From the sequence record SRR20825006_1064: a stretch of 60,663 nucleotides of DNA, one strand, 5' to 3'. Below, piece by piece: positions 8,874 to 27,654 of this stretch. Made by a program: the position numbers and the translations under genes. The notes under the pieces are model-generated. The model saw only the letters and a program-made list of their open reading frames with translations. It was not told where the DNA came from and did not search any database. Positions within the stretch are counted from its first letter, which is position 1, and every line of letters begins with the position of its first letter.

Positions 8874-11861
8874 TCAGAACTTGAAACCGACATTAAGGCG
8901 GACCGAGCGCGGCTGAGCCGCTGTACGGACCGCGAGGAAGTCCTCGTTCGGGCCATCAAAGCTGTCCGTGATGATCTCATACAAGCGGAACGCCTTCTGG
9001 GTGTTCAGCACGTTGAAGACATCTAGACCGGCATAAAAATCGAACCCGTTGATCTGAGTTGTGTAGTCAAGGCTCAGGTCAAGGCGAACCTGCCAAGGCG
9101 TGGTGCCATATTGGCCGCGCTCGATATACTCAAACACACGGTCCTGGCTCGTCCAGATGCCATCGCCCGGGTCAAGGCAGTTATCAACGCAGAGATAGTT
9201 GCCTTCCTTACGGGTTTGGGTATTGAACGGGTTACCATAGGCCCGGGCGTTGATGGGTGCACCGGAAAGAATGGACATATTCGCACCCGCTGTCAGCTCA
9301 GGTGTGATGGCATAAGCGCCATACATCTTGAACTGGTGCCGGTGGTCGTTTGCCAACACGCCATAGTTGGAGTTGATGAACATCACATCATCGCCAGATT
9401 CGGTCCAGCCCGGGATATCGTTGCCGGTATCCGAGTTGACGCCGCCCTCATAGTTACCTGTGCTTTTTGACAGGGTGTAGGAGAAGCGAGCCATCCAGGT
9501 GTCATCCCAGTGGCGATTGGCGACAAACTCAAGTGCACTATATTTGCGGATCGGACGATCAGAGCCAATTGGGTCCGGGTTGCCGTCACCGTCAAGGTCG
9601 TAACCGAAGCTTTGCGCTTCACCGAGATCAACTGTCACGGTTTGAACACCGCCGGTGTCACAGTCGTGGTCGATGGTCAGTTCTTTACCAACGTTACCAA
9701 ACACCCACTTGGAGATGTTGCCACAACCGGCCACGTCTACATCAATGCGCATGTCTTCGATCGCGTCGTGGAATTCACGGTAGATACCGCGCACGCCGAA
9801 ATCCCAGTCGTCATTGACGGCCATCTCGAAGCCGAGGATGAACTCGTCCTGGTATGATGCATCAAGATCCTGGTCGACGACGAAGTTTTTGTCGTCACGG
9901 CCTTCACCGCTACCGAACTGAACCACCTGACCGATTTGAGCACCCAGCTGAGGCGTGATGTTGGTCAGGCCCGCGCTGGTTTCATTCTCTACCAAACCCT
10001 GAAGGGCGTAGTAGGTACGTGTATCGATCGTGCCACCACCCTCACGCGCGGCCAGGCCGTTGGCGATTGGGAAATAGTAGCGACCTGCGTTGGCATAAAG
10101 CTTCATGTTGCCGTCGCCCTTCACATCCCACGCGAGGCCGAAGCGAGGCGAGAACATGTTGGAGACTTTAATGAAGGAATTGCCTTCAGCGTCCTTGCTG
10201 TCAAACCGGTCCCAGCGTACGCCAAGCGTTGCTGTCAGATCGTCGGTTACGGACCAGATGTCTTCAAGATAAGCCGCTGATGTGTTGGCATCAAACGTAC
10301 CACCACGAATTTCCTGGCGCGCCAGCACATAGGCGCTCACACCGTCCGGCACGGTGGTGTCGTTCACGCTGTCACCCGGCTGGGTGTCATAGATGGTGAA
10401 GTTGGCCTGCTCTGGACCTACAGACGCCCGTTCCATGAAGGTTGTACGCTTCTCGTGGTCAAAGCCGAAACGGAGCAAATGGCGGTCAAGCTGCCATTCC
10501 ATATCAAGCCGCATGGCGTCGCGTGAGTTGATGCGGTTGTCGTTCCGGGTCTGTGTTGTACAGCCGATATGCTCGTCCACGCCGTCACGATCATCATACA
10601 CCCGGTTACACTCGGTTGAGATGTTTGTGTAGTCGTTGGAGTTCCGCTTGTTACGGCCATAAAGGGCCTTCACCGTGAAATTATCGGTGATCTGACCGGT
10701 GTATGTTGCCGCCCAGTTGATACCGCCGCGCTCGCTTGTTGCGGTTTCAGCGTAAGTGCCGCCCTGGAAGCGGTCTGTCACTTCCGTGTTCTCATCAGAG
10801 AAGACGAAAGCCTCAATGCTGTGGTTATCGGTGATGAACCAGTCAACCTTACCGCCCCAGAAGGAGGAGTTGTCGTCAAACTGGCTGAGCGACGACCCTG
10901 TTGTGTTGTAGAACGAACCGTCGTTGATACGCGGCTGGAACAAGGCATAGAAGAAGACCTTGTCTTTGATGATTGGCCCGCTCAGGTGCAGGTTGGCGCT
11001 GAAATTGTTGGTTTCATCGTCCGAGCGGTAGATGGTTTTGTCACCGTCGCGGTTATAGAAGTCATTTGCGTTGCCACGCAGGAACTGAGGCTCATAGAAA
11101 ACCTCGGCGCCGCCATGGAACTCGTTGGTGCCTGATTTCAGCACGGCGTTCACAACACCACCAGTCGTGCGACCAAATTCAACGGAATAACCGCCGGTCT
11201 TAACCTGGAATTCCTTGAACATGGAGAAAGGAACGTCAGAGAAACCAACCCCGGTTTCAACGTCGCTCACGTTCAGGCCGTTCACGAAGATGGAGTTTTC
11301 ACCAACCGATGCACCACCGAAGGAGATGCCACCAAAAGCAGGACCCTGTACAACGCCGGGTGCCAGAAGGGCGACCGCGTCGGCTGAGCGGCCGATCGGC
11401 AGGTCTTCAAGCATCGCCGCGCTGATGTTAAGCGCCGATTCGGTTGATGTCATGTTGATGCCGCTAAGCGATGAGGCAGAGACGATAATCTCTTCCATCG
11501 CCATGTCGCCAGCTGACAGCGCAACGTCCAGATCGGTTGAACCACCAATGGAAACGCGAACGTCTTCCACCAGCGTGCGTTCATAACCGTCTTTGGACAC
11601 CGTTACATTATAAGTGCCCACCGGCAGGCGGGCGAAACGGAACTGACCATCGCTGCCAGCAGTGACAGCCCGGCGGAATCCGTTTTCCGTGTTTGTAACC
11701 GTAATTGTAGCACCGGAGAGGGCGGTGTTGCTTTCGCTTGTCACCATACCCCGGATTGAGCCGTCGCTGTTGGCTGCGAAGGCTGAATTGACGGAGAGAG
11801 CGGCACAACTGACCCCCATCCCCAGTATCAATGATAATTTTCGCAAGTTCCGTGCGTTCAT
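8874..11861 (-). CDS. Oar-type TonB-dependent receptor with carboxypeptidase-regulatory-like N-domain
   Basis: Signal peptide from M at 11861 (alternative 11873); GSIRGMV...LPVGTYNVTVSKDGY; plug EFQVKTGGYSVEFGRTTGGVVN; FSPRFGLAWD; terminal VGFKF. Confidence 0.92.
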   Translation of the reverse strand: MNARNLRKLSLILGMGVSCAALSVNSAFAANSDGSIRGMVTSESNTALSGATITVTNTENGFRRAVTAGSDGQFRFARLPVGTYNVTVSKDGYERTLVEDVRVSIGGSTDLDVALSAGDMAMEEIIVSASSLSGINMTSTESALNISAAMLEDLPIGRSADAVALLAPGVVQGPAFGGISFGGASVGENSIFVNGLNVSDVETGVGFSDVPFSMFKEFQVKTGGYSVEFGRTTGGVVNAVLKSGTNEFHGGAEVFYEPQFLRGNANDFYNRDGDKTIYRSDDETNNFSANLHLSGPIIKDKVFFYALFQPRINDGSFYNTTGSSLSQFDDNSSFWGGKVDWFITDNHSIEAFVFSDENTEVTDRFQGGTYAETATSERGGINWAATYTGQITDNFTVKALYGRNKRNSNDYTNISTECNRVYDDRDGVDEHIGCTTQTRNDNRINSRDAMRLDMEWQLDRHLLRFGFDHEKRTTFMERASVGPEQANFTIYDTQPGDSVNDTTVPDGVSAYVLARQEIRGGTFDANTSAAYLEDIWSVTDDLTATLGVRWDRFDSKDAEGNSFIKVSNMFSPRFGLAWDVKGDGNMKLYANAGRYYFPIANGLAAREGGGTIDTRTYYALQGLVENETSAGLTNITPQLGAQIGQVVQFGSGEGRDDKNFVVDQDLDASYQDEFILGFEMAVNDDWDFGVRGIYREFHDAIEDMRIDVDVAGCGNISKWVFGNVGKELTIDHDCDTGGVQTVTVDLGEAQSFGYDLDGDGNPDPIGSDRPIRKYSALEFVANRHWDDTWMARFSYTLSKSTGNYEGGVNSDTGNDIPGWTESGDDVMFINSNYGVLANDHRHQFKMYGAYAITPELTAGANMSILSGAPINARAYGNPFNTQTRKEGNYLCVDNCLDPGDGIWTSQDRVFEYIERGQYGTTPWQVRLDLSLDYTTQINGFDFYAGLDVFNVLNTQKAFRLYEIITDSFDGPNEDFLAVRTAAQPRSVRLNVGFKF

Positions 11862-12048
11862 TTCCTCACCCATAAGCTTTCTGTTGGTGCAACGAAGCCC
11901 CTCCGCCTCGTCGCAAGAATACTTGACGAATAATTTATGCGATGAATTATTCCTTCTGTAAAGAATTTTTATTCCAAGCGACACAAAATTGCCGAAAAAA
12001 TAAGCTTCCCTGCTCCATTTCTATCTGGTAGAACCGGTTTGGGAAGAT

Positions 12049-12063
12049 GGAATAAATAATTCC
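12049..12063. promoter_or_regulatory. Palindromic operator GGAAT-N5-ATTCC (candidate MurR/RpiR site)
   Basis: GGAATAAATAATTCC in the divergent TonB receptor/DUF819 intergenic region; imperfect copies at 11928-11975. Confidence 0.65.
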
Positions 12064-12173
12064 GTTGTGGTTTTATGAGGCTTTTGGACCGGAAAAAGGC
12101 CTTAATGACAGACAACTTATATCTATGGGTATACCCAAAGGAATAAATTCGTTGGTCAGGGGAGAATAGGGCG

Positions 12174-13334
12174 GTGATTACAGACGGTTTCACGTATCTG
12201 GCGGTTTTGCTTCTGATCGGGGGCGCTATTCGCTTGCTTGAGACAGGAACAAACCACCGAATTTTCAACTATCTGCCCGGCGTTGTGGCGCTTTATATCA
12301 TTGTGATGATGCTCAGCACCTTCGGGCTGTGGCAACAAAGCGCCAGCGTGAACGCGACCTACGGCACGGTGAAGGGTAACATCCTGCCTGCGATGATTTT
12401 CCTGATGCTTTTGAAGGGTGACCTGCGCAAGATCGCGGCCCTTGGTCCGCGCATGTTGCTGGCTTTTGCCGCCGCGGCCATCAGTATCGGTGTTGGTTTT
12501 GTTATTACTTATACTGTGCTGAATACATGGTTACCAGCGGACGCCTGGAAGGCATTTGCGGCTCTTTCCGGCAGTTGGATGGGCGGCACCGGCAACATGG
12601 TGGCCATTCAGGGTGCCTTGAATGTGCCTGACAGCTCGATGGGCTATACGCTTCTGATGGATTCGATTGATTACGCCATCTGGGTTATCCTCCTGCTCGC
12701 TCTTGTACCGCACGCCAAGCTTTTCAACCGCTGGACCAAAAGCGACACCGGCATCATCGACCGGGTTGGTGAAAAACTGGATCTGGGAGAAGACGCGGAT
12801 AAGAGGATCGACTTCACAGCGCTTGTATTCCTGCTGGGCGCGGGCCTGGCTGCATCCGCGCTATCGCAAAACCTGGCTGGGCTGATGCCTGCCACCAGCT
12901 TTTTCACCGGCACCACATGGGCGGTGTTGATTGCCACCATTTTGGGCGTGAGTGCGGCGATGACACCGATGGGGCGCATGGCCGGTTCCAATGAGCTCGC
13001 GAATGTCATGCTCTATGCCATTATCGCGCTCATCGCATCGCGTGCAGACTTCGCAGGCCTCACGCAGGCACCGCTTTATGTGTTTGCAGGCCTGATGATC
13101 CTGATCATTCACGGCCTCTGCATGGTGGCGGCGGCAAAGGTATTCAAACTTGATCTGTTTTCCTGCGGTATCGCCTCACTTGCCAATATTGGCGGGGTGG
13201 CGTCTGCGCCTATCCTTGCGGCTGCTTATTCACAAATGCTGATCCCTATCGGGGTGCTGATGGCCATGCTTGGGTATATCATTGGCACCGGCGGTGGGTT
13301 GCTGGTCGGTAAAATATTGTCCCTGCTCTCTTGA
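12174..13334 (+). CDS. DUF819-family inner-membrane protein (putative transporter)
   Basis: 386 aa, about 10-11 TM; ALSGSWMGGTGNMVA and ASLANIGGVASAPILAAAY motifs typical of DUF819. Confidence 0.85.
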   Translation: MITDGFTYLAVLLLIGGAIRLLETGTNHRIFNYLPGVVALYIIVMMLSTFGLWQQSASVNATYGTVKGNILPAMIFLMLLKGDLRKIAALGPRMLLAFAAAAISIGVGFVITYTVLNTWLPADAWKAFAALSGSWMGGTGNMVAIQGALNVPDSSMGYTLLMDSIDYAIWVILLLALVPHAKLFNRWTKSDTGIIDRVGEKLDLGEDADKRIDFTALVFLLGAGLAASALSQNLAGLMPATSFFTGTTWAVLIATILGVSAAMTPMGRMAGSNELANVMLYAIIALIASRADFAGLTQAPLYVFAGLMILIIHGLCMVAAAKVFKLDLFSCGIASLANIGGVASAPILAAAYSQMLIPIGVLMAMLGYIIGTGGGLLVGKILSLLS

Positions 13335-13360
13335 GAGGCTGTACCCTTATGAGGAATGTG

Positions 13361-14788
13361 ATGAAAAATCCGGGTTCAAAACTACTGTTGTTGCTCGCGC
13401 TTGGCTTGGCCGCCTGCGGAAGCGAGGAAGAGAAACAAAACACGGTCACGCCGCCCAACGGGCTTGATGATGCGTTTGTCTCAGACGTTATTGAGGTCGA
13501 GGAAAAGCACCTGAGCGCAGACTATTGGGTTGACACGCTGCCGAGCGGGGCGGGTGATGTGATCCTCACCACTGATGAGATCAAGGCCATGAACGCTTCC
13601 AGCATCGACGGTGACCCGACGATGTTTGACCTCAAGAGCGTGCCCGATACGCTTCCGGGTGATGAGGTGCGCACGCGCCTTCGGTCCATCAGCAATGTGC
13701 CGTCTTACCCACGTGTTTATATGAACGGCAACCCGGTGCGCGAGGCTGATTTTGACGCCTATGAAGCCAGCCTCAATCTGGATGCTATCCCAGATGAAGT
13801 GCCGGTCCGCTTCGCACTTGCGGTCCGCCGCACACCGCTTCGTACCTATCCAACCATGGACAGGCTTTTCAGCGAAGGTGCGAGCAACACGGATATTGAC
13901 CGTTTTCAGGAATCGACCCTTTTCCCCACAGATATAATGGCAGTGCTGCATGAAAGTGCAGACGGCAACTGGGCGCTGGTGCAGACCTATAATTATATTG
14001 CCTGGGTGCAGCGAAAGGATATCGCCACTGGCGACCGTGAGGAGCTGTTTGCCTATAAGGACGCGGCCGATGTGCTGGTGATGACGGGGGCCAAGGTGCA
14101 CACCGTTTATAACCCGGTGGTCAAGACTGTGTCTGAATTGCAGCTGGATATGGGCGTGGCGGTGCCGCTGGACCGGCCGGAAGAGTTTGCAACCAACCTC
14201 TATGGCCAGAACCCCTATGTGCATCATATGGTCAAACTGCCTGTTCGTCTTGATGACGGCAGCCTGGCGTTCCGCCACGCGCTGATATCCCGCGCGGAAG
14301 ATGTACGGGTGGGATACCTGCCGTTCACACGTGCCAACATCATTCGGCAGGCTTTCAAGTTTCTGGGTGAACGTTACGGCTGGGGCCACAGTTATAATGG
14401 CCGGGACTGCACGGGTTTTGTCTCTGAAGTATACCGCAGCATGGGCATCTTGATGCCGCGTAACTCAGGCGACCAGGGCAAAAGCGTGATCGGCTCCAAC
14501 AGCCGCTTTGAGAAGGAAACACCGCGGGCTGAAAAAGAAGCGCTGTTGCGCACCTCGCTTGTGGGTGACCTTGTGTATATCCCCGGCCATGTGATGATGA
14601 TTTTGGGGCACGACGGCGACAAGCCGTTCGTGATCCATGATGTTACGGGCCTCGGGTATCTCGCGGATGACGGCAGCATCTATGATGGCACGCTCAACGG
14701 TGTTTCCATCACGCCGCTGCTGACGCTACAATCTTCGAAAACCCGCACCTATGTTGATGCGGTGTATAATGTCAAATCGATCAAATGA
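13361..14788 (+). CDS. SH3-NlpC/P60 lipoprotein, likely gamma-D-Glu-meso-DAP peptidase (YkfC-like)
   Basis: Lipobox LAAC; SH3-like middle (DIDRFQES, WALVQTYNYIAWV); catalytic YGWG...RDCTGF...PRNSGDQ...GHVMM...IHD; GAGGA RBS before ATG 13361. Confidence 0.88.
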   Translation: MKNPGSKLLLLLALGLAACGSEEEKQNTVTPPNGLDDAFVSDVIEVEEKHLSADYWVDTLPSGAGDVILTTDEIKAMNASSIDGDPTMFDLKSVPDTLPGDEVRTRLRSISNVPSYPRVYMNGNPVREADFDAYEASLNLDAIPDEVPVRFALAVRRTPLRTYPTMDRLFSEGASNTDIDRFQESTLFPTDIMAVLHESADGNWALVQTYNYIAWVQRKDIATGDREELFAYKDAADVLVMTGAKVHTVYNPVVKTVSELQLDMGVAVPLDRPEEFATNLYGQNPYVHHMVKLPVRLDDGSLAFRHALISRAEDVRVGYLPFTRANIIRQAFKFLGERYGWGHSYNGRDCTGFVSEVYRSMGILMPRNSGDQGKSVIGSNSRFEKETPRAEKEALLRTSLVGDLVYIPGHVMMILGHDGDKPFVIHDVTGLGYLADDGSIYDGTLNGVSITPLLTLQSSKTRTYVDAVYNVKSIK

Positions 14789-14809
14789 TCCAACAGGTAG
14801 AAGTGTTCC

Positions 14810-15907
14810 ATGAAAATTACCGGCTATAAACTTGGCATGTTGCGCGTGCCGCTGGTGACAGCGTTCAAGACCGCGCTGCGCACCGTTGATCATATCGAAG
14901 ACATTGTGCTCATCATCGAGACGGACACCGGCCATAAAGGTTATGGCGAAGCACCCGCGACGGCGGTGATCACCGGCGATACGCATGGCTCGATCCTTGA
15001 TGCCATCCGCACTTTCATCATGCCGCGCCTGATAGGTATGGAGATCACGTCGCTGAACGAGATCACCCAAATCATCCAAGGGGCGCTTGTGAACAACTTC
15101 TCCGCCAAGGCGGCGGTGGAGATCGCGGTTTATGACCTGTTCGCGCAATATTATGACGCACCGCTTTATAAAATTCTCGGCGGCGGGCAGCCGCGCCTCT
15201 CGACCGACCTGACCATCAGTGTCGACTATATCGACAAGATGGTGGCCGACAGCATCCGCGCCTGTGACGCGGGGTATGAGACGCTCAAGATCAAGGTCGG
15301 CAAGGACATCGGTGTTGATATCAAGCGGGTGAAGGCGATTTATGCGGCGGTGAAAGACCGCGCGCTTCTGCGCCTTGACGCCAACCAGGGCTGGTCGCCG
15401 CGCCAAACGGTGGCGGCGCTACATGAACTTGAAGAAGCGGGCATTGAGCTGGAGCTTATCGAGCAGCCCGTGAAGGGTGAAGACCTCAAGGGCATGAAAT
15501 ATATCACCGAGCGTGTGCGCACGCCGGTGATGGCCGATGAAAGCACCTTCGGCCCCCGTGAGGTAATCGAGCTTATCCAGATGCAGGCAGCGGACATCAT
15601 CAACATCAAGCTGATGAAAACCGGCGGTATTTCAAACGCCATCAAGATCGCGGATATCGCGTCTATCTATGGTGTGGAATGCATGATCGGCTGTATGCTG
15701 GAAAGCAGCATCAGCGTGACAGCTGCAGCCCATTTGGCAGTAGCCAAGCCAAATGTGATTACCAAGGCTGACCTTGATGGGCCTTCGCTTTGCCAGTTCA
15801 ACCCGGTTGACGGCGGGGCCACGTTTGACAGCTCAGAGATTACCCTGTCAGAAGATCCTGGTCTGGGCATCAAGTCGATCGAAAACCTCACGATGATCGA
15901 CGACTAG
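14810..15907 (+). CDS. L-Ala-D/L-Glu dipeptide epimerase (enolase superfamily)
   Basis: KIKVG, LDANQG, IEQP, ADES, INIKLMKTGG, GCMLES and DLDG motifs. Confidence 0.92.
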   Translation: MKITGYKLGMLRVPLVTAFKTALRTVDHIEDIVLIIETDTGHKGYGEAPATAVITGDTHGSILDAIRTFIMPRLIGMEITSLNEITQIIQGALVNNFSAKAAVEIAVYDLFAQYYDAPLYKILGGGQPRLSTDLTISVDYIDKMVADSIRACDAGYETLKIKVGKDIGVDIKRVKAIYAAVKDRALLRLDANQGWSPRQTVAALHELEEAGIELELIEQPVKGEDLKGMKYITERVRTPVMADESTFGPREVIELIQMQAADIINIKLMKTGGISNAIKIADIASIYGVECMIGCMLESSISVTAAAHLAVAKPNVITKADLDGPSLCQFNPVDGGATFDSSEITLSEDPGLGIKSIENLTMIDD

Positions 15908-15935
15908 GGCATCAGCCAGGACTGCATGAACAGAC

Positions 15936-15980
15936 AATAAAAAACCCCGGCCGCATATGGTGCGCCGGGGTTTTTTTATT
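15936..15980. terminator. Bidirectional rho-independent terminator
   Basis: AATAAAAAACCCCGG...CCGGGGTTTTTTTATT between convergent genes. Confidence 0.88.
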
Positions 15981-15992
15981 TGAGTTTACGGT

Positions 15993-19148: not shown

Positions 19149-20429
19149 TTGATCGTGGCACTCAGGTATGAAAACGGCGCACTGATGATGGAAGGGGTTT
19201 CCCTTACCACCATTGCGCAGGCCATTGGCACCCCGGTGTATTGTTATTCAAAGGCTGCAATTGCGGCGGCGTTTGACGCTTATAAAGCGGCTTTCTCGTG
19301 CTTTCCGGGGGTCATGGTCTGTTATGCGGTCAAGGCCAATACCAACCAGGCGGTGATTGGCACGTTGGCTGACCTTGGCGCCGGAGCCGATGTGGTTTCG
19401 GAAGGGGAGCTCAGGCGTGCCCTCAAGGCCCATATTCCCACGTCAAAAATTGTTTATTCCGGTGTGGCAAAACGCCCGGCGGAGATGGCCTTTGCGCTCA
19501 AGGCCGGTATTTTCCAGTTTAATGTGGAATCAGAGCCAGAGCTTTTCGCGCTCAGCAAGGTCGCAACGTCCCTCGGGCTTACCGCAAACATCGCACTTCG
19601 CGTCAACCCGGACGTGGACGCCAAAACCCACGCCAAAATTGCCACCGGCAAGGCGGAAAACAAGTTTGGCATCCCGTGGAAACGGGTGCGCGAGGTTTAT
19701 GCTGAAGCTGCGGGTTTGCCCGGTATTCGCATCCAGGGCATTGCCATGCATATCGGCTCCCAGCTTATGTCGCTTGAGCCTTATGATGCAGCTTACGCAA
19801 GGCTCAAAGAGATGGTCACCGCGCTCAAATCCGACGGCATCACGCTTGACACCATTGATATCGGTGGTGGGCTCGGCATCCCTTATGACGGCGGCGCGGC
19901 GCCTGATGTCTCGGCGCTTGCGGCACTCGCCTACAAATACCTTGGCCAGTTTGGCGCACGGCTGATGCTGGAGCCCGGCCGGTCGCTTGTGGGGCCATGC
20001 GGCGCGTTGCTATCCGAGGTGATTTATGTGAAGTCTGGCGAAAGCCGGGATTTCCTGATTGTTGACGCAGCGATGAACGACCTGATCCGCCCCGCCATGT
20101 ATGATGCCTACCACGGCATCAAACCCCTGAAGGCTGACGCCCGGCCAGATGCGGCGTATGATGTGGTTGGCCCGGTGTGTGAAACCGGTGATACCTTCGC
20201 GGTTGGGCGCACAATACCTGAGTTGCGTGCGGGCGAGCATATCGCTTTCACCCACACCGGCGCTTATGGCGCGGTGATGGCATCCACCTACAACACTCGC
20301 CTGCTGGTGCCTGAGGTGATGATCGACGGCGCGAATTTCGGCGTGATCCGCCCGCGCGGCAGTTATGACGAACTGATTGCCGCTGATACCCCGTGGCAAA
20401 ACGGCGAGGCGGTCAAAAAAGCCGGTTAG
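19149..20429 (+). CDS. lysA: Diaminopimelate decarboxylase
   Basis: YAVKAN (PLP lysine), RVNPDVDAKTHAKI, HIGSQ, EPGR, GPVCETGD, GAYGAVMASTYN; start TTG 19149 or GTG 19155. Confidence 0.95.
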   Translation: MIVALRYENGALMMEGVSLTTIAQAIGTPVYCYSKAAIAAAFDAYKAAFSCFPGVMVCYAVKANTNQAVIGTLADLGAGADVVSEGELRRALKAHIPTSKIVYSGVAKRPAEMAFALKAGIFQFNVESEPELFALSKVATSLGLTANIALRVNPDVDAKTHAKIATGKAENKFGIPWKRVREVYAEAAGLPGIRIQGIAMHIGSQLMSLEPYDAAYARLKEMVTALKSDGITLDTIDIGGGLGIPYDGGAAPDVSALAALAYKYLGQFGARLMLEPGRSLVGPCGALLSEVIYVKSGESRDFLIVDAAMNDLIRPAMYDAYHGIKPLKADARPDAAYDVVGPVCETGDTFAVGRTIPELRAGEHIAFTHTGAYGAVMASTYNTRLLVPEVMIDGANFGVIRPRGSYDELIAADTPWQNGEAVKKAG

Positions 20430-21283
20430 ATATCTTCAACAGCCTGTTGGCTCAGGGTCACAAGCTCACGCCCGTGGGTGTTGCGGCTTGAAAGCACAAG
20501 GTAAAGCGCATCAATGAGGTGCTGCAGCGCCACGCGCGCGATGATGTGTGGCGCGCTTGAAGCGGCGGCCGGGCCGGAGCGCTCATCAAAGGTGAACAGG
20601 CTATAGTCTGACATCAGGCTCAGCGGGTTCACGTCATATTTTGTGAGCGAGACGATGGTGACACCTGCTTCTTTTGCGGCTTCTGCCAGCTCGTTCACGT
20701 GGCTGTTCTGGCCTGAGACAGAAAGCGCGAACAATACATCCCCGCGCCGCATGGAGGCGAGATTGGCTTTCTGTACAAAGGGGTCACTTTCCGCGACGAC
20801 AGATTTGCCCATGATCATCAGCTTGAGCGCAAAATCCTTCACCACCAGCGAATAGCCGCCTGCGGCGACAAACTGGATACGGTTGGCTTTCTCGATGGTG
20901 CGCACCACGTCCAGCAGCGCTTCTTCGCCGTTCAGCTCCGCGATGCCGCGCACAACGTCGGCTTTGGTTTGCGCAAGTTCCTCAAACACGGTGCCAGCCT
21001 CGTGGTCGCCAGCGGGCTTTTGCATCTGGTTGAGATCAACCTGTGCGCTGCCTCGCGCCAGCTCTTCACTAACCGCAAGTTTGAGGGCGGGATAACCGCG
21101 GTAGCCCAGCTTCTGGCTGAACTTCACCACGCTTGATTGGCTCACGCCAACCGCTTCGGCGAGTTGCTGCGACGAATAATCCCTGAGAAGCGAGGCGTTG
21201 TTCAGGATAAATTCGGCAAGTTTCCGTTCGTTCGCAGACATTCCGTTAACTGCCCGCCGAATATTTGCCAAACAATCGTTCAT
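20426..21283 (-). CDS. MurR/RpiR-family transcriptional regulator
   Basis: HTH SSQQLAEAVGVSQSSVVKFSQKLGYRGYPALKLA closely resembles the MurR/YfhH subgroup; C-terminal SIS domain (LSVSGQN). Overlaps the lysA stop by 4 nt. Confidence 0.92.
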   Translation of the reverse strand: MNDCLANIRRAVNGMSANERKLAEFILNNASLLRDYSSQQLAEAVGVSQSSVVKFSQKLGYRGYPALKLAVSEELARGSAQVDLNQMQKPAGDHEAGTVFEELAQTKADVVRGIAELNGEEALLDVVRTIEKANRIQFVAAGGYSLVVKDFALKLMIMGKSVVAESDPFVQKANLASMRRGDVLFALSVSGQNSHVNELAEAAKEAGVTIVSLTKYDVNPLSLMSDYSLFTFDERSGPAAASSAPHIIARVALQHLIDALYLVLSSRNTHGRELVTLSQQAVEDI

Positions 21284-21418: not shown

Positions 21419-22834
21419 TTAATTCTTGCTGCTTGCCGGGAACCAGTGCAGCCACCACCTGAGCACTTCATCCTCGGCCCGGTACATTGGCGTTACGCCG
21501 CTGCCCGGTGCCGGGTCATCCGCCGTGCCGGTAATCAGCGCAATGAGCGCATCACCATTTTCAAAATCGATCCAGAACTGACCCATAAGGCCGTAGGCGT
21601 CACCGAGGTGACCCGTGAGCGTACGGTCTTCCTCCAGGTTCCATTCGGGCAGATGCACAATATGGGTGGAAAGCCCATAAGCCTGCATCAGGCCCTTGGA
21701 TGGCCCGTCAGGGTTCGCGTCTTCGCCCGTGGTGTTGGCGTTCTCTGTGCCCGCGTCATAGCGCCAGAAGGGCGTGGCCATGGCCTTCACGCTCTCGGGG
21801 CGCAGAAGCCGTACACCGTCAACCTCGCCGCCACCCAGCAGGAGACGCGCGATTTTTGTGAGGTCCTTGGCAGATGCCCGCAAACCGCCCTGAGGCGAGA
21901 AAGCTGTGGGGTTTTCGCCGGGCACGTAGCCTTCCAGTACCGGGCCGGGTTGCTCCCCACGGCCAACAGGCTCCATGCCGTAGGTGCAGGAGAAACGTTT
22001 GCTATCAAGCTGGGGCTGCCAGTCACCGTCCGGGTGCCAGTTGCCGTCATCATCGCGTTTGCGGAACAGGGTGGCCATGCCGTCCGGGTTTACCGTCGTC
22101 ACATCACACACATTATAGCTGGCACCAAGGCCAAGCGGGAGCAGCACTTCCTCGCGCATATAGCGGTCGAAACGCTTGCCGCTCACCATCTCGATCACAC
22201 CGGCCATGATGCCGAAGTTGAGGTTGGAATAGGTGAAAAATTCGCCGGGCTGTTGGCCTTCGCCGCTTGCGAAATGCGCACCATCTTCATAGTGCGCGCC
22301 GCCGGGGCGGAAAAAGTCTTGAAACTTCTCACCGACCTTCAGCCAATAATAGCTTGCGTCACGGATCGATGAGCTGTGTGACAGCACCATGCGAAGCGTG
22401 ATTTTATCATTGGGGAAATTGGGGTTTCTGAGCGTGAAACCCAGATAGTCGGACACGTCCGCATCCAGGGCTACCTCACCCTTTTCCACCAGCTTCATAA
22501 GCCCGATGGTTGCCACCAGTTTGGAGATGGACGCAATGCGCATCTTGTGATCGAGAGTGAGGGGAATGTTCTCACCCGTATCAACGCGCGCAAGCCCGGT
22601 CGCATGCGTGAAAACCGGCTTGCCGTCCCTGATGACAACCATCTGCAGCCCACTGATCTCGGGTGAGCCCTGAACCTTACCTGTGACAATTGCGTCAAGC
22701 GCTTCATAGGCCTCGGGGGGAAGGCTGTCGTTTGCCGCAATCCCTCTCGTCACGCCAGTAAGGCCAAGAAACCCAAGCGTGGCACACATCACGGCAGCTC
22801 TGAAACTTGGGAGGAATTGTCGTGACACGTGCAT
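21419..22834 (-). CDS. Periplasmic beta-lactamase-fold serine hydrolase
   Basis: Signal peptide; MRIASISK, FTYSN, GHLGDAYG. Confidence 0.88.
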   Translation of the reverse strand: MHVSRQFLPSFRAAVMCATLGFLGLTGVTRGIAANDSLPPEAYEALDAIVTGKVQGSPEISGLQMVVIRDGKPVFTHATGLARVDTGENIPLTLDHKMRIASISKLVATIGLMKLVEKGEVALDADVSDYLGFTLRNPNFPNDKITLRMVLSHSSSIRDASYYWLKVGEKFQDFFRPGGAHYEDGAHFASGEGQQPGEFFTYSNLNFGIMAGVIEMVSGKRFDRYMREEVLLPLGLGASYNVCDVTTVNPDGMATLFRKRDDDGNWHPDGDWQPQLDSKRFSCTYGMEPVGRGEQPGPVLEGYVPGENPTAFSPQGGLRASAKDLTKIARLLLGGGEVDGVRLLRPESVKAMATPFWRYDAGTENANTTGEDANPDGPSKGLMQAYGLSTHIVHLPEWNLEEDRTLTGHLGDAYGLMGQFWIDFENGDALIALITGTADDPAPGSGVTPMYRAEDEVLRWWLHWFPASSKN

Positions 22835-22926: not shown

Positions 22927-22969
22927 ATTAGAGTCAAGGCCTATTCGCGGCTTTTGGCACAGCAGTTTT

Positions 22970-23512
22970 TCAGGTTTTAGTCACCTCGTACCGGTTCATC
23001 ACCAATCCGGAGCCATAGCTTTGTGAACTGAGAAGTTTCAGGTCAACGTCACCCTCTATTTCGCCAAAAAGACGAATGCCTTTTCCAATGAGGATCGGGA
23101 TCAGCGTAAGCGTGATATCGTCGACAAGGCCCGCCCGCATGAATGATTGCACCAAACGCCCCCCGTCAACATAGGCCCGTTTCCAACCCTTTTCATCCAG
23201 GTAGTTCATCACCTTTGCCGGGTCGGTCTCGTTCGTGATCTCAACTTTGTCTTTCAACTCAACGGGAATGTCGTCAGGCCCCAAAGTGGCGCTCATGACG
23301 AGCACAGGTTTTGTGTAGATCCAGTTTTCAAAAGTTAATACGGTTTCATAGGAACCGCGCCCCATTACCAGCCCGTCTACACTGTCGATGAATTCATCAT
23401 AACCAAAGTCCTCGCCCTCGGTTTTCTGTTTCATCAACCAATCAAGCGTGTGGTCTTCTCGCGCGACAAAGCCATCAAGGCTGGTGGCGATATAAACATG
23501 GCCGGTCGTCAT
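22970..23512 (-). CDS. Dihydrofolate reductase/RibD C-terminal family protein
   Basis: YIATSLDGFVA, MGRGSY, YVDGG, PILIGKGIRLF. Confidence 0.88.
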   Translation of the reverse strand: MTTGHVYIATSLDGFVAREDHTLDWLMKQKTEGEDFGYDEFIDSVDGLVMGRGSYETVLTFENWIYTKPVLVMSATLGPDDIPVELKDKVEITNETDPAKVMNYLDEKGWKRAYVDGGRLVQSFMRAGLVDDITLTLIPILIGKGIRLFGEIEGDVDLKLLSSQSYGSGLVMNRYEVTKT

Positions 23513-23600: not shown

Positions 23601-25109
23601 TCAGAGAGGCGAAGGCCGTCTCTCTAGTACCTGCCCTGAGCGGGCCTTCGTGGGACCGCCGACTTCAAACGCTGTTTTGCCGCCCACCAGCACCATGTCA
23701 AACCCGGTGGCGAGTTTGTGCGGGGTGGTGAAATTGGTCCTCTCTCGCACGTTTGCAGGCTCAAAGATAATGAGGTCTGCCGCCATGCCGGGGCTGATGA
23801 TGCCGCGGTCAGAAAGCTGCATGATCTCAGCCGGGAGCCCGGTGGCCTTATGAACAGCGGCTTCAAGGCTCATGAGGCTTTTATCCTGCACATAATATTC
23901 AATCAGCCGGGCATAGGTGCCGTACCCGCGCGGGTGGCGCATGGTGGGGCTGCCGTCGGTTGAAAGCGCCATCCCGGGTGCTGCAACCAGCCTGTCCACC
24001 AGTGTGCGGTCCATCACAAAATGCGCCGCGCTGCCGCCGGTGGGGCCAAGGTCTGCCATGAAATCAACCGGATCTTTGCCCGCGTCCCGCGCGGCTTCAG
24101 CCATGGTTTTGCCGGCATGGGGTGCTGTGCCAAACAATAGCGCTTCCGGCCCGCCGCGTTTTTCAATTCGTGCTTTCAGGTAGGCCTTCAGCTCGTCATC
24201 GCGGGTTTGGCGCAGGGCGTTATAATCGGTTGGTGGCAAGGCCCATTCGGGGAAGAGGATACCCACGCCGGTAAAGCTGGCGGCATAGGGGTAAACGTCT
24301 GCGCTCAGCCTCGCGCCGCTCACGCGTTTGCCTTCCATAAACGCCAGCAGCTCATCCGCCCGCGCGGTGCCTTTGCCGTAAACCACCTTGAGGTGGGAGA
24401 TATGCACCCGGCCCTTGGGTGCCATGCTGACAAGCTCGTCGATCGCGTCTTCCACATCCGCATTATCTTCGCTGCGCATATGGCTCATGATGATGGCGTT
24501 CTCAGCCTCAATCACTGCGCCCAGTGCTTTCATCTCAGCCTCTTCCGCATACACACCGGGCACATATTCAAGCCCGAGCGACAGGCCAAATGAACCAGCC
24601 GCCAGATCATCCTTCAAGGTTTGTTGCAGGGCTTTGATTTGCGGGGCAGAGAGCGCTCGGGTGCCGTCATCAATGCCAGCCTTGTGGCGTACCGTGCCGT
24701 GGCCCGACATGGGGATAACATTCAGCTCCAGCCCGTTTTTGGTCGCTTTTGTGCGCCATGCGTCAAGCCCGCTGCCTGTCAGGCTCTCGCTGCTGCCGTC
24801 CATGCCAAGGGTGACGGTTGTGACCCCTTGGGCGAGGAAGTTTTCAAATGAATGTTTGAGCGGATTGCCGTGGCTGTGAAGGTCGATAAAGCCCGGAGCG
24901 ACAACGCGGCCTTTGGCGTCTATCACGCGTTTGGCGGTTGTGGTCGCATTTGGTGCCAGCACTTCGCTGATCACGCCGTCTTCCACCACTATATGGCCGG
25001 GGTAGGCATCCGCCCCTGTGCCGTCCACAATCATGGCGTTCCGGATGATGAGGTCAGCGTCCGCGAAGGCGGCGGATGAAAAGAGCATAAGGCAGGCGAG
25101 CAGGCGCAT
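23601..25109 (-). CDS. Secreted N-acyl-D-amino-acid deacylase (amidohydrolase)
   Basis: APGFIDLHSH, SHMRSE, HISHLK, DVYPY, STDG...HPRGYGTY, MSLEAAVHKATGLPA. Confidence 0.88.
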   Translation of the reverse strand: MRLLACLMLFSSAAFADADLIIRNAMIVDGTGADAYPGHIVVEDGVISEVLAPNATTTAKRVIDAKGRVVAPGFIDLHSHGNPLKHSFENFLAQGVTTVTLGMDGSSESLTGSGLDAWRTKATKNGLELNVIPMSGHGTVRHKAGIDDGTRALSAPQIKALQQTLKDDLAAGSFGLSLGLEYVPGVYAEEAEMKALGAVIEAENAIIMSHMRSEDNADVEDAIDELVSMAPKGRVHISHLKVVYGKGTARADELLAFMEGKRVSGARLSADVYPYAASFTGVGILFPEWALPPTDYNALRQTRDDELKAYLKARIEKRGGPEALLFGTAPHAGKTMAEAARDAGKDPVDFMADLGPTGGSAAHFVMDRTLVDRLVAAPGMALSTDGSPTMRHPRGYGTYARLIEYYVQDKSLMSLEAAVHKATGLPAEIMQLSDRGIISPGMAADLIIFEPANVRERTNFTTPHKLATGFDMVLVGGKTAFEVGGPTKARSGQVLERRPSPL

Positions 25110-25118
25110 GGTGTGGTC

Positions 25119-26315
25119 CTATTTTTCTTCGGTCGTGGTGTTTTGGGCTGCGGGGAAAATGTGTTCGAACATATCTGCGCGAACACGTTCCCTCAGCCCA
25201 AAGGCATGGTCGCCCGCAGTGTTATTATTATAGATGGCGGCGGTGCCTGTCTTGGGGTCGATATAGACGAAGGCGGTAAAACCGGCTTGGTCCCCGGTGT
25301 GGCCAATATAGCGTGTGGGCGCAGCCGCGCCTTCCGGTGTGTTTTGAATAGTGAAAAACACCATGCCCATATATTCCTCAACGGACGTATCGTCGGTACG
25401 GCGAAGGGCCTGCCACATCTCATCAAAACTTTCCCGGCGCAGGATGGCGGGTGTGCTGTCGTCCAGCCCCAGCCACACATTCAGCCATTTCACCATGTCA
25501 CCTACCGGGGCGTTCAGGCCACCGTTGCCCACGGTGGCGCCGGTGTCGAAATCAGGCCCGAAGGCCGACACTTCACCGCCTTCAACCCAGTAGCTGTTCG
25601 AACGGTCGGCCAGCAGGTGATAAGGCGTGGTGTCAAAATAGCTTTTGCTCATGCCCAGCGGCATCAGGATATTTTTGGTAAGATATTCCTCGATACTGTC
25701 ACCGCTGATGATCTCAACCACCCGCCCGAGCATGGAAATGCCGGGGTTGGAATAGCTATACGCGCTGCCAGGCGGGAAATGCAGCCGGGTGTATGGCATC
25801 ATGGCCGCAACCTGTGACCAGGCTTTGGGCTCAAACGGGTGCCAGTCTTCTCCGCCACCCCACGGGAATGTGGGGGAGCGAAAGCCGGAGGAATGCGTGA
25901 TCAAATGACGGAGGGTGATGTCCTCCATGCCACCATAAGGGTTATGCACCGCTCCCACTTCCGGCAGATATTTTATGATCGGGTCATCAAGGCTCAACCG
26001 CCCGCGGTCACGCAGCTGCATCACGGCGGTGGCCGTCAGCGTTTTGGTGATCGACGCCCAGTGGAAGATGGTGCCCTCGTCAATCTGCCGCCCTGTTGCA
26101 TCGTCCGCCATGCCATAGTTATGCCGGGCGATGATTTTGCCGTCCCTGAGGAAACCGACGGTGGCACCGATGGTGCCCGCATCTGCCATCATGCTGTCAA
26201 AGCGGCGTTCGAAGGCTTGCCAGCGATCATCAATCGCATCCGCCGCCACACCAGTTGATGTGAGACATAAACATGCGATGAGCGAAAAAGCTTTGTGTTT
26301 AAAAATGTTTAGCAT
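25119..26315 (-). CDS. Periplasmic beta-lactamase-fold serine hydrolase
   Basis: Signal peptide from ATG 26315; FHWASITK, YSYSN, GHTG. Confidence 0.88.
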   Translation of the reverse strand: MLNIFKHKAFSLIACLCLTSTGVAADAIDDRWQAFERRFDSMMADAGTIGATVGFLRDGKIIARHNYGMADDATGRQIDEGTIFHWASITKTLTATAVMQLRDRGRLSLDDPIIKYLPEVGAVHNPYGGMEDITLRHLITHSSGFRSPTFPWGGGEDWHPFEPKAWSQVAAMMPYTRLHFPPGSAYSYSNPGISMLGRVVEIISGDSIEEYLTKNILMPLGMSKSYFDTTPYHLLADRSNSYWVEGGEVSAFGPDFDTGATVGNGGLNAPVGDMVKWLNVWLGLDDSTPAILRRESFDEMWQALRRTDDTSVEEYMGMVFFTIQNTPEGAAAPTRYIGHTGDQAGFTAFVYIDPKTGTAAIYNNNTAGDHAFGLRERVRADMFEHIFPAAQNTTTEEK

Positions 26316-26373
26316 GTCATGTCCCCCCACTAAATGCTATGGCAACACCGCCACACCCGCGCCGCAGAAACCG

Positions 26374-27510
26374 TCACACATTTGCCCACAAACGATCAGG
26401 TTTCAGCGCATTCTCAATCACCCCGAAGACCTTGAGCGCCGGGTCAGGCTCGCCCGTCAGGATAAGCCCGGCGGCGAAACGCGCAAGCGCTGGTGCTGTC
26501 TGGATACCGTAGCCCCCCTGACCCGCCAGCCAGAAAAAGCCTTCCGCGTCCTTATCGAACCCTGCAACCGGTGTGCGGTCTGCCACGAAGGACCTGAGGC
26601 CCGCCCAGCGGTGCTCAATGCGGCGCACATTGATGCTGGTGGCGGTCATCAGCCGGTCGGCGGCGATGGCAACGTCCAGCTCTTCCGCCTGCGCGTCACA
26701 GGCCGAGGTTTCCGTTTCATCACAAGGGGATACCAGCAGGTGTCCGGCATCGGGCTTGAAATAAAACTCTTCCCCGATATCCATCACCATCGGCCAGTTG
26801 GCCGGGTTATGTTCTGGCGGTGGTGCAACCAGAATGGCTGTGCGGCGCTTGGGTTTAAGCCCGATGGAGCGTGCACCTGCAAGCGTGCCAATCTCATCCG
26901 CCCAGGCGCCAGCGGCGTTCACCACCACCGGGGCGCTGTAGCAGCCCGCGCCCGTGGTAACACGCCAGTTGCCGCTTTGTTTTTTGATTTCGCTAACGGT
27001 TGTGCCTGTCTGGATATCCCCGCCCTTGCGGCGGATATCCTTGAGGTAGCCCTGATGCAGGCCATGCACGTCGATATCCGCCGAGCCGTCTTCATAAAGT
27101 GCACCAATGAGCGCATCTTCCTTGAGCACAGGGCAGTAAGACACAGCCTCTTTTGCGCTGATCCAACGGGTATGGGCGGCAACATCAGGCTGTGCTTTCA
27201 AGCCGTCAAGCGCTTCGGCCTGCAAGGGCGTGGCCACAAACATGGTGCCGCGTGGGTTCAGGAGTGGCGCTTCTGCAAAACCCTCAGGCGGGTTTTCAAA
27301 AAACGCTTTGCTGGCACGGGAAAGCGCGCGTACCGCCTTGCTGCCGTATATTTCCGAGAATAGCGCGGCCGAGCGCCCGGTTGAGTGGTAGCCCGGCTGC
27401 TCCTCGCGCTCAATCAGTAGTATGTTCCGATGGGCTGCCAGCTCAGCGCCCAGCGAAGCGCCAGCCATGCCTGCGCCAATGATGATGATATCGTATGATG
27501 TATCGGCCAT
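26374..27510 (-). CDS. FAD-dependent oxidoreductase, D-amino-acid dehydrogenase (DAO/DauA-like) family
   Basis: IIGAGMAGAS, GYHSTGRSAA, VNAAGAWAD, WAGLRSF, GQGGYGIQTAPA. Confidence 0.85.
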   Translation of the reverse strand: MADTSYDIIIIGAGMAGASLGAELAAHRNILLIEREEQPGYHSTGRSAALFSEIYGSKAVRALSRASKAFFENPPEGFAEAPLLNPRGTMFVATPLQAEALDGLKAQPDVAAHTRWISAKEAVSYCPVLKEDALIGALYEDGSADIDVHGLHQGYLKDIRRKGGDIQTGTTVSEIKKQSGNWRVTTGAGCYSAPVVVNAAGAWADEIGTLAGARSIGLKPKRRTAILVAPPPEHNPANWPMVMDIGEEFYFKPDAGHLLVSPCDETETSACDAQAEELDVAIAADRLMTATSINVRRIEHRWAGLRSFVADRTPVAGFDKDAEGFFWLAGQGGYGIQTAPALARFAAGLILTGEPDPALKVFGVIENALKPDRLWANV

Positions 27511-27547
27511 TTAATCCAAACTCCGGGCAGGTTGCCCAATTTCATTT

Positions 27548-27605
27548 GGAATAAATTATCGAATAATTCTGAAAATAGGAATAAAAAATTTCTAGCGCAT
27601 GGAAT
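27548..27605. promoter_or_regulatory. Imperfect GGAAT-N5-ATTCC-like sites upstream of the oxidoreductase operon
   Basis: GGAATAAATTATCG (27548), GGAATAAAAAATTT (27578), GGAATAA (27601). Confidence 0.45.
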
Positions 27606-27654
27606 AACCCCGAAATAGCGCAGAATACAGCGAATTTTTACGCGGTCAGACCGC

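Follow-up and report, generated by a model that had tools for sequence, protein, structure and literature searches.

Several bacteria are known to take apart the stem peptides of peptidoglycan. The ykfABCD operon of Bacillus subtilis and the mpaA and ycjG genes of Escherichia coli both pair an enzyme that frees L-Ala-D-Glu with an epimerase. The equivalence of MpaA, and a proposed Bacteroides thetaiotaomicron route (BT1087-BT1314-BT1313-BT1086) with periplasmic trimming, cleavage of the bond between gamma-D-Glu and meso-diaminopimelate (mDAP), epimerization of L-Ala-D-Glu, and a dedicated permease, are given in the part of Xu et al. (2015; PMC4600125) on which we draw. The enzyme kinds, and the pairing of endopeptidase with epimerase in B. 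subtilis, E. coli, and Bacteroides, are known already. Here we analyze a stretch of 60,663 nucleotides from sequence record SRR20825006_1064 (the window), in which a locus at 8874-27620 encodes the same pairing, and would carry out the same steps as the Bacteroides route, beside a TonB-dependent receptor. An earlier note on this DNA had read the locus as one for utilization of external stem peptides. Comparative genomics is the source of the support that we find for this interpretation. We propose, with a probability of roughly 0.6, that the locus serves the accessory uptake and catabolism of free stem peptides (L-Ala-gamma-D-Glu-mDAP-D-Ala and relatives).

Gene calls come from the listing of open reading frames (ORFs) and from Pfam and NCBIfam profile searches of the window proteins. 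By these means, all genes named in the earlier note were found at 8874-27620, together with a RibD_C gene that was absent from its list:

8874-11984, minus strand: ORF of an Oar-type TonB-dependent receptor, likely start about 11861 (Pfam PF13620 CarboxypepD_reg, PF07715 Plug, PF00593 TonB_dep_Rec_b-barrel, PF25183 OMP_b-brl_4)
12174-13334, plus strand: DUF819 membrane carrier, heading the operon (PF05684, 325 bits)
13331-14788, plus strand: NlpC/P60 lipoprotein (Pfam SH3_6/SH3b1 and NLPC_P60; lipobox L-A-A-C)
14810-15907, plus strand: dipeptide epimerase of the enolase superfamily (MR_MLE_N/C, PF02746 and PF13378)
15993-17549, minus strand: Bla1, S12/PBP-type serine hydrolase with C-terminal DUF3471 (PF00144 and PF11954)
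17579-19021, minus strand: NhaC-family inner-membrane carrier (PF03553)
19149-20429, plus strand: lysA, diaminopimelate decarboxylase (TIGR01048, 449 bits, cut-off 297.9)
20426-21283, minus strand: RpiR/MurR-family regulator (HTH_6 and SIS)
21419-22834, minus strand: Bla2, second exported S12/PBP-type hydrolase (PF00144)
22970-23512, minus strand: RibD_C gene, between the Bla2 and amidohydrolase genes (Pfam)
23601-25109, minus strand: exported Amidohydro_3 protein, D-aminoacylase-type, with signal peptide (PF07969)
25119-26330, minus strand: Bla3, third exported S12/PBP-type hydrolase (PF00144, 218 bits)
26374-27510, minus strand: DAO-family flavoprotein, DauA-like (PF01266)
27655-28515, minus strand: LysR-family regulator, heading the minus-strand gene string (PF00126 and PF03466)

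The plus-strand operon DUF819-NlpC/P60-epimerase, in which the DUF819 stop overlaps the NlpC/P60 start (ORF listing), is divergent from the receptor gene. Downstream of it lies a minus-strand pair, the NhaC gene and then the Bla1 gene, and a minus-strand string runs in the order LysR, DAO, Bla3, Amidohydro_3, RibD_C, Bla2, RpiR. Signal-like N-termini are present in Bla1, Bla2, Bla3, and the amidohydrolase and lacking in the epimerase, LysA, and the DAO flavoprotein; the DUF819 protein has at least nine hydrophobic segments and the NhaC-family carrier about 13. With the lipobox on the endopeptidase, four signal-bearing hydrolases, three signal-less enzymes, and two polytopic carriers, the predicted compartments match the order of the proposed steps. 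These steps are all drawn from homology, predicted location, and gene context. The Oar-type receptor would carry peptides over the outer membrane. In the periplasm, the three S12/PBP-type hydrolases and the amidohydrolase would trim D-Ala ends and open D-Ala-mDAP cross-links, and the NlpC/P60 lipoprotein would cleave gamma-D-Glu-mDAP, Tyr222 limiting its substrates to peptides with a free N-terminus. The DUF819 carrier is proposed to import L-Ala-D-Glu, and the NhaC-family carrier mDAP and/or D-Ala. In the cytoplasm, the YkfB-type epimerase would supply L-Ala-L-Glu to general dipeptidases, the extra LysA would turn mDAP into lysine, and the DauA-like dehydrogenase would oxidize D-amino acids. 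Control may lie with the LysR regulator together with a repressor of the RpiR family that binds ATTATTCC/GGAATAAT palindromes.

The receptor shows the Oar-like domain set (N-terminal CarboxypepD_reg, Plug, and barrel; Pfam). Its homologs are 974-1023 aa long; a start near 11861 would give 995 aa and is probably the true one, followed by a signal peptide ending in ...SAFA. We used this receptor for a reverse check of its neighborhood. An even draw of 401 Pseudomonadota genomes yielded matches at E <= 1e-100 in 17 of them, with 25 places in all. Of the 24 places that lie outside the nearest genome, 18 were fetched with 20 kb of surrounding sequence, and six weaker ones were left out. The five best homologs outside the genus (41%-43% identity; two families of another class) have NlpC/P60 and epimerase genes adjacent and divergent in all five cases. 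The same five loci also hold a Bla1-type hydrolase, M15 dipeptidase, RpiR, and YkuD, and one of them (the gammaproteobacterial locus L121) adds DUF819, LysA, an M19 dipeptidase, and a 46% identical DAO homolog. Sugar genes were found in none of these five loci. At the 13 weaker receptor places fetched (30%-37% identity), none of these neighbor genes was found. Similar receptors come from sources named Lysobacter, Stenotrophomonas, Luteimonas, Microbulbifer, Pseudidiomarina, Bowmanella, and Gimibacter.

Some further features accompany receptors of this type. A Transglut_core protein (about 444-518 aa) is encoded at L120 (8056-9588, minus), L121 (10363-11919, plus), and L138 (8417-9751, minus) and in L075 and L085. 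In the five gammaproteobacterial loci with the window-type receptor, its gene lies directly upstream of the receptor gene, on the same strand. In Pseudidiomarina, this gene is divergent from the receptor gene and an M23 peptidase gene follows the receptor; Transglut_core genes also lie within Microbulbifer NlpC/P60 loci and are absent from Kordiimonas. An ORF at L120 (8350-9585, plus) was rejected as spurious: It has no Pfam match, and the real gene, encoding Transglut_core, is on the opposite strand. No RNA data set is recorded as containing this stretch. In four public runs guessed to be RNA (two studies, at most three samples), short exact contigs lie on the receptor gene only (9209-11895), and contigs give no level or strand; missing contig cover over 12064-17549 in these runs carries no weight. 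One loose contig end resembles a SMART cDNA adapter.

A second approach started from the endopeptidase. Searched with a profile built from 18 NlpC/P60 homologs, contigs representing one genome per species gave at least 587 confirmed places. We took the 80 best together with 10-kb flanks on either side (58 loci have full flanks), clustered ORFs at a minimum of 30% identity and 60% coverage, and annotated recurrent families by Pfam. Among the 80 loci, which are the closest relatives of the query and many of which are kin, so that counts are not independent events, the epimerase recurs in 67, RpiR in 40, a sodium:solute symporter (SSF) in 39, a second Oar-like receptor family of about 1000 aa (TBDR2) in 38, Bla1 (Beta-lactamase plus DUF3471) in 33, NhaC in 31, a BadF-type kinase in 31, the exo-muramidase NamZ in 26, DUF819 in 25, a MurQ-like SIS etherase in 25, a YkuD-like protein in 23, alanine racemase in 19, and Amidase_2 in 18. 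LysA and GH3 each occur in 14; an S66 LD-carboxypeptidase with a twin-arginine (TAT) signal, and a fused Amidase_2, PG_binding_1, and Beta-lactamase protein, each in 13; and a D-aminoacylase-type amidohydrolase in nine, an M19 dipeptidase in eight, an M15 D-Ala-D-Ala dipeptidase in seven, and the receptor family of the window (TBDRw) in seven. As judged by family, the neighbors elsewhere are unambiguously genes of peptidoglycan catabolism.

Gene order is shared as well as gene content. In both Alpha- and Gammaproteobacteria, the operon of DUF819, NlpC/P60, and epimerase genes is found again in company with the NhaC-S12 pair, RpiR, and a second lysA; NhaC is paired with Bla1 in 31 of the 80 loci, and the order Bla1-NhaC/LysA-RpiR is common to Kordiimonas, Woeseiaceae, and other lineages. 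A metagenome-assembled genome of Pseudomonadota has, with strands in brackets, SSF(-), TBDR2(-), Amidase2(+), DUF819(+), NlpC(+), Epim(+), Alr(-), Bla1(-), NhaC(-), LysA(+), RpiR(-); in Woeseiaceae the order is NamZ(+), SSF(-), TBDR2(-), Amidase2(+), NlpC(+), Epim(+), Alr(-), Bla1(-), NhaC(-), LysA(+), RpiR(-); and in Pseudoalteromonas it is NlpC(+), Epim(+), YkuD(+), SSF(+), BadF(+), MurQ(+), NamZ(+), TBDR2(-). Amidohydrolase homologs directly follow NlpC/P60 in seven of nine Maricaulales-like loci, and the Bla2 family is also found in three Maricaulales-like loci. One or the other receptor family lies within 10 kb in 42 of the 80 loci (35 of the 58 with full flanks). Pairs of TBDR2 proteins taken between the alpha and gamma classes have a median identity of 48% over 98% of their length, so that they make up one orthologous family and not a set of random receptors. 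No sugar or amidase gene is present in 16 of the 58 full-length loci. The earlier note had named, beforehand, conserved co-occurrence in other genomes as a test on which its idea could fail; co-occurrence was found in both classes, with the receptor result standing at 5/5 versus 0/13.

Three further observations come from these loci. The fused protein (822 aa at L054, 1105-3573, minus, and present in 12 more loci) links an S12-type Beta-lactamase-fold domain to a muramoyl-alanine amidase. Genes for a lipoprotein of about 450 aa without Pfam match immediately precede NlpC/P60 or DUF819 in 19 of the 80 loci, all gammaproteobacterial (L041, 5301-6671, plus, for example). Rheinheimera loci (L064, L053, and others) have a minimal TBDR2-NlpC/P60-epimerase-RpiR set followed by a conserved block of genes whose products, by eye only, resemble at their N-termini those of the cell-division/wall-synthesis (dcw) cluster.

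The endopeptidase had been taken in the earlier note to be of YkfC type; sequence, fold, and Asn378 instead point to the DvLysin type. The catalytic triad C360, H420, H436 is invariant in 18 of 18 aligned family members and present in the window protein. The best solved relative by sequence is DvLysin (3M1U; E = 1.6e-15 alone and 1.6e-25 with the family profile), and B. cereus YkfC matches over the catalytic core only. An AlphaFold (AF2) model (pLDDT 85, pTM 0.82), compared by Foldseek, has a four-domain architecture of N-terminal helical c-clip, SH3b1, SH3b2, and NlpC/P60. It is closest to 3M1U (TMt 0.79 over 440 columns), with Photobacterium PnpA (6SQX) next; the YkfC structures match the C-terminal three domains only (TMq 0.43).

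In the part of Xu et al. (2015; PMC4600125) used here, stem-peptide-specific enzymes are distinguished by an SH3b1 Tyr and a catalytic-domain Asp, a pair that binds the free N-terminal L-Ala, and DvLysin by Ala211 and Asn351. Its A211Y mutant is reported there to lose peptidoglycan activity, to fall from 5500 to 90 on tracheal cytotoxin and from 5400 to 60 on MurNAc-tetrapeptide, and to retain activity on free tetrapeptide (6100 vs. 4900). In both HMMER alignments, Y222 of the window protein pairs with DvLysin Ala211, at high alignment confidence, and N378 with Asn351 (chain index 181 of 3M1U is Ala211, since chain Cys303 is Cys333, an offset of 30; residue numbers from PMC4600125). Both residues are invariant in 18/18 family members. 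The lysin-type S2/S3 pair of Ala211 and Asn351 is therefore incomplete in this family, only N378 being lysin-like, and so is the YkfC-type pair of Tyr and Asp (motif PRDS): Y222 is present, and the Asp is replaced by Asn378 in an invariant motif PRNS. As far as these aligned residues tell, the endopeptidase is a natural counterpart of the engineered A211Y enzyme. Since Y222 aligns with A211, the behavior of this one mutant of a distant relative suggests that the endopeptidase may prefer peptides with a free N-terminus.

The epimerase matches B. subtilis YkfB (1JPM/1TKK) over its full length (E = 4.4e-98, residues 1-355). It keeps R24, the residue for the Glu side chain, and the motifs K-I-K (KxK), K-L-M-K (KxxK), and D-L-D (DxD). 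It is predicted to be a cytoplasmic L-Ala-D/L-Glu epimerase of YkfB type, and scores under equivalog cut-offs of models built for Thermotoga or enteric forms (NF041118, 241.5 vs. 500; NF011708, 105.9 vs. 343). As a separate observation, this gene is 92%-98% identical between species of the genus (window vs. G013, G014, G019, and G009; L086-L093), and its neighbors in three more distant species are 66%-81% identical (NlpC/P60, 72%-74%), except for the receptor and RpiR (85%-89%). The high identity could stem from unusually strong constraint or from a recent exchange that involved the epimerase gene alone.

The lysA gene of the locus is a second copy: Three locus-bearing genomes have two genes above the cut-off (about 500 and 449 bits), and two locus-free genomes have one. 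We rejected a housekeeping role for it, as it is extra to the copy of about 500 bits in locus-bearing genomes. Active-site motifs of the S12 type are visible in Bla1 (S83-T-T-K, Y178-D-N, H335-T-G), Bla3 (S93-I-T-K, Y193-S-N, H344-T-G), and Bla2 (S102-I-S-K, Y202-S-N; the third motif was not found by regular expression). The best solved relatives of Bla1 are Pab87 (2QMI), alkaline D-peptidase (4Y7P), and the R61 DD-peptidase. Antibiotic resistance was considered for these Beta-lactamase-fold genes and rejected, the scores being 79.5, 29.5, and 84.7 bits against a class C cut-off of 415 (NCBIfam bla_class_C). Bla3 is present in three of the four other species of the genus and missing in G009.

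Solved relatives of the amidohydrolase include 9G5M, the Bordetella N-acyl-D-Glu deacylase 3GIP (E = 8.8e-51), and the D-aminoacylase 1M7J (E = 3e-48); its NF006560 score is 170 against a cut-off of 340. The D-aminoacylase subgroup of amidohydrolases also cleaves L-Xaa-D-Xaa dipeptides, and we propose for this protein hydrolysis of L-Xaa-D-Xaa or of acyl-D-amino acids. The DAO flavoprotein matches the D-arginine dehydrogenase DauA of P. aeruginosa (3NYC) over its full length (E = 4.6e-107). A DUF819 search gave 24 places in 21 of the 401 genomes at E <= 1e-30. The two places with at least 41% identity adjoin NlpC/P60, and the 22 places with 26%-32% identity do not (0/22).

Names of homologs suggest that the window belongs to a marine bacterium in or next to Kordiimonas (Alphaproteobacteria). 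The nearest genome available (G001) shares 84% of sampled words with the window, and comparisons were made with it and its relatives. The epimerase is found in five of 25 genomes of the genus and in none of 16 genomes from other genera of the order (E <= 1e-40). In all four other locus-bearing species the block is syntenic, reaching from the gene that precedes the receptor gene to a 2-oxoglutarate (2OG) oxygenase beyond DAO and LysR; RibD_C is confined to the window and G013, the closest relative. These findings mark the locus as a genuine unit of optional occurrence and RibD_C as a lineage-specific insertion that does not belong to it. The cultured K. aestuarii and K. gwangyangensis are among the species with the locus. 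Flank synteny was given up as a means of fixing the island borders, the GlyK flank being syntenic only in G001 and G013. Among the locus-bearing genomes of the genus, MurQ above cut-off was found in 0/5 and NamZ in 0/5, which marks the genus version as peptide-only; AnmK is present in 5/5, far from the locus. In the window itself, representatives of MurQ, NamZ, GH3, Amidase_2, SSF, and BadF-kinase have no match at E <= 1e-5, nor do those of the racemase, S66, M15, M19, and YkuD families. The Kordiimonas version thus appears to be the peptide arm of a wider, mosaic kit for peptidoglycan utilization, led by a receptor family with peptide-only neighbors.

AT-rich inverted repeats with ATTATTCC/GGAATAAT as their unit are common to two divergent promoter regions of the locus. 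In the region that separates the receptor gene from DUF819 (11928-12063), the candidate elements are GAATAAT-N11-ATTATTCC at 11928-11953 and GGAATAAATAATTCC at 12049-12063; both are kept in the intergenic regions of four other Kordiimonas loci, where flanking bases diverge. Between the NhaC gene and lysA, a candidate palindrome ATTATTCC-N4-(C/G)GAATAAT lies at 19088-19107. It is the only match in the window at up to three mismatches (0.15 expected), and the corresponding position in two other species (L008 and L018) holds a perfect 8-4-8 palindrome. GGAATAAT occurs four times in the window, three of them in intergenic regions of the locus (1.48 expected; 7 of 100 shuffles reach four, a weak statistic), and a half-site also precedes the Bla2 gene. 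Since the palindrome occurs once in the window and the half-site statistics are weak, these repeats are a candidate operator mainly by virtue of their conservation between species. For E. coli MurR, the part of the report drawn on here gives contacts to N-acetylmuramic acid (MurNAc) 6-phosphate at S146, K159, H171, S190, S192, and K195 (PMC9177960). The RpiR protein of the locus keeps three of the six, K159 and the two phosphate-binding serines S190 and S192, with Tyr for S146, Phe for H171, and Asn for K195. It has HTH_6 and SIS and scores 126 against a PRK15482 cut-off of 408.

Outside the locus, the window encodes a second receptor-led string on the minus strand at 51044-58350, comprising a TonB receptor (55786-58350), an esterase (54524-55525), a Beta-lactamase plus DUF3471 protein (52930-54564), and an Amidohydro_3 protein (51044-52819). 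It shares the latter two families with the main locus, behind a different receptor. A third TonB receptor (35712-38240, plus) is followed by a TPR plus Sulfotransfer_3 protein (38335-39759, plus); a TPR-sulfotransferase family, which may or may not be orthologous to it, adjoins NhaC and Bla2 in six related loci (Maricaulales-like examples; L016, 17751-19313).

A number of observations weigh against the stem-peptide reading or narrow it, beginning with the kinship among the 80 loci noted above. Neither receptor family lies within 10 kb in 38 of the 80 loci (23 of the full-length 58). Five genomes in which an NlpC/P60 cluster lacks a receptor beside it were searched: Four gave no orthologue at E <= 1e-150, and Pseudidiomarina sediminum has a 56% identical orthologue about 100 kb from its NlpC/P60 cluster, flanked by a Transglut_core protein and an M23 peptidase. 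With three TonB receptors in a 60-kb window, and a substrate unreadable from sequence, receptor adjacency in the window is in itself weak evidence. Within the endopeptidase, the lysin-type Asn378 is kept in place of the YkfC Asp, so that the Tyr argument rests on one mutant of a protein that is 19% identical in the fold alignment. The epimerase, RpiR, amidohydrolase, and S12 proteins all fall under their NCBIfam equivalog cut-offs. DAO (one locus beyond the genus) and Bla3 (28%-32% identity only) stand outside the cross-class core. The regulator appears to be of a phosphosugar-sensing type, which is odd for a peptide-only system. The earlier view of the locus as peptide-specific holds for the Kordiimonas lineage but not for the wider family, most members of which add an amidase, NamZ, MurQ, a kinase, and a sugar carrier. 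The complete dismantling that it envisaged would also call for a MurNAc-L-Ala amidase, an S66-type LD-carboxypeptidase, and an L-Ala-L-Glu dipeptidase, which are not encoded here.

We considered four other explanations. In the first, which we regard as unlikely, the genes salvage the turnover of the cell's own wall, and the receptor recaptures lost fragments or is unrelated. The closest characterized systems (B. subtilis ykf, E. coli MpaA/YcjG, and the proposed Bacteroides BT1313-1314) are indeed called recycling in the part of PMC4600125 drawn on here, and self-recycling would also agree with AnmK in all five locus-bearing genomes and with the 38 of 80 related loci without a nearby receptor. 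However, the locus is optional (five of 25 genus genomes by epimerase), the second lysA and the catabolic D-amino-acid dehydrogenase would burn products rather than re-use them, a Mpl-type ligase was not found in the locus by Pfam and NCBIfam profile scans, and two specific receptor families accompany the genes across classes.

A second explanation, also improbable in our judgment, is a broader island for D-amino-acid peptides and acyl-D-amino acids, in which non-ribosomal peptides, lipopeptides, and other D-residue matter are taken and wall peptides are one substrate of many. At the family level, S12 hydrolases, D-aminoacylase-type amidohydrolases, and DauA-type dehydrogenases are wide in their D-stereospecific range, and the receptor-led operon at 51044-58350 has two of the same enzyme families. 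In other taxa, Tang et al. (2012; PMC3400609), as far as the part of that report used here goes, guessed peptidoglycan and N-acyl-D-amino-acid receptors from gene context, the latter uptake from a receptor adjoining a D-aminoacylase. Against this breadth, the endopeptidase, epimerase, and LysA of the cross-class core jointly fit an mDAP-type stem peptide only, and the neighbors elsewhere include muramidase, etherase, and muramoyl-alanine amidase.

There is a slim chance that the receptor does something else. It might import glycan-bearing muropeptides, or act in export, as is reported for Myxococcus Oar, and free peptides would then pass through porins. Tri- and tetrapeptides of about 370-460 Da could pass general porins; the regulator looks phosphosugar-responsive; and the Oar name comes from a protein linked to secretion. 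NamZ and MurQ, however, are missing from the locus-bearing genomes, an amidase for glycan-bearing fragments is missing from the locus, and the receptor orthologues keep peptide-only neighbors in 5/5 genomes. Chance juxtaposition of unrelated genes, which the high receptor density of the window might suggest, is very improbable given synteny in 4/4 other species, recurrence in two classes, and negative controls at 0/13 weaker receptor homologs and 0/22 distant DUF819 places.

Uptake and catabolism of free stem peptides is thus the reading that we prefer. A more specific form of it is tentative and may well not hold in full: that the receptor family of the window is the first TonB transporter dedicated to free stem peptides, with TBDR2 serving glycan-bearing fragments; that the NlpC/P60-linked DUF819 protein is the missing L-Ala-D-Glu importer; that NhaC and the extra LysA form a decarboxylation pair, mDAP in and lysine out; and that all of these make up a self-contained peptide utilization locus through which marine Proteobacteria feed on D-amino-acid-rich wall debris.

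Peptidoglycan peptides are a large, D-amino-acid-rich share of bacterial necromass and of marine dissolved organic nitrogen, and the uptake of external peptidoglycan peptides by Gram-negative bacteria is not established. If the stem-peptide reading is true, it would supply a substrate for a family of Oar-type TonB receptors, few of which, to our knowledge, have known substrates. It would also assign functions to the S12 plus DUF3471 hydrolases and to one subfamily of DUF819, and provide a natural counterpart to an engineered enzyme, DvLysin A211Y. Kordiimonas species with and without the locus could be compared, which would make this a tractable system for feeding on wall debris. The kit recurs in many Proteobacteria of sea and soil; as it is found in Lysobacter- and Stenotrophomonas-like genomes, it may also have a role in soil and in bacterial predation.

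A TonB-linked locus for utilization of stem peptides or peptidoglycan in Proteobacteria was not found described in the literature searched, in which subscription journals are thinly covered; Tang et al. (2012) and Xu et al. (2015) come closest. In particular, we found no published account of an endopeptidase-epimerase pair tied to TonB receptor families of its own, of the NhaC and DUF819 carriers in this setting, of an additional LysA, or of the division into peptide-only and sugar-plus-peptide versions. DvLysin (3M1U) and the YkfC enzymes (BcYkfC, 3H41; BoYkfC, 3NPF; BT_1314) share with the window protein the Cys-His-His gamma-D-Glu-diamino-acid endopeptidase type and the SH3b1-NlpC/P60 core, as far as the part of PMC4600125 used here describes them. 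The window protein looks like a hybrid by comparison, with DvLysin architecture and Asn378 but a YkfC-type Tyr; other differences are its lipoprotein nature and the TonB receptor and DUF819 carrier genes that accompany its own. The B. thetaiotaomicron route differs in having been put forward as one of recycling that begins at anhydro-muropeptide with the amidase AmiA; the available part of that report (PMC4600125) names no TonB receptor for it. Its proteins, the epimerase family excepted, are not orthologous to those of the window.

Compared with ykfABCD and mpaA/ycjG, the endopeptidase of the window is periplasmic, a TonB receptor is present, and DUF819 and NhaC carriers replace uptake of the Opp/Dpp ABC type. 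The window also adds an extra LysA, three S12 hydrolases, and a D-amino-acid dehydrogenase, in a locus that is optional within the genus. Gene clusters for N-acetylglucosamine (GlcNAc) in Xanthomonas and Caulobacter are reportedly also TonB-receptor-led. The SusC/SusD polysaccharide utilization loci (PULs) of Bacteroidota and the Caulobacter GlcNAc clusters, the latter as described in the part of PMC13046382 drawn on here, have the same combination of receptor, periplasmic hydrolases, carriers, cytoplasmic enzymes, and regulator. In the window, the substrate would be a D-amino-acid peptide and not a glycan, and the SusD family has no match among the 14 locus proteins scanned, so the likeness to PULs is functional only. 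Tannerella forsythia and B. subtilis are said to scavenge MurNAc by means of NamZ, MurK, MurQ, and MurT. Related gammaproteobacterial and Maricaulales-like loci resemble those genes in that their peptide genes are accompanied by NamZ, a BadF-type kinase, and a MurQ-like etherase, whereas the window and the locus-bearing genomes of the genus, without NamZ and MurQ, would represent the peptide arm only.

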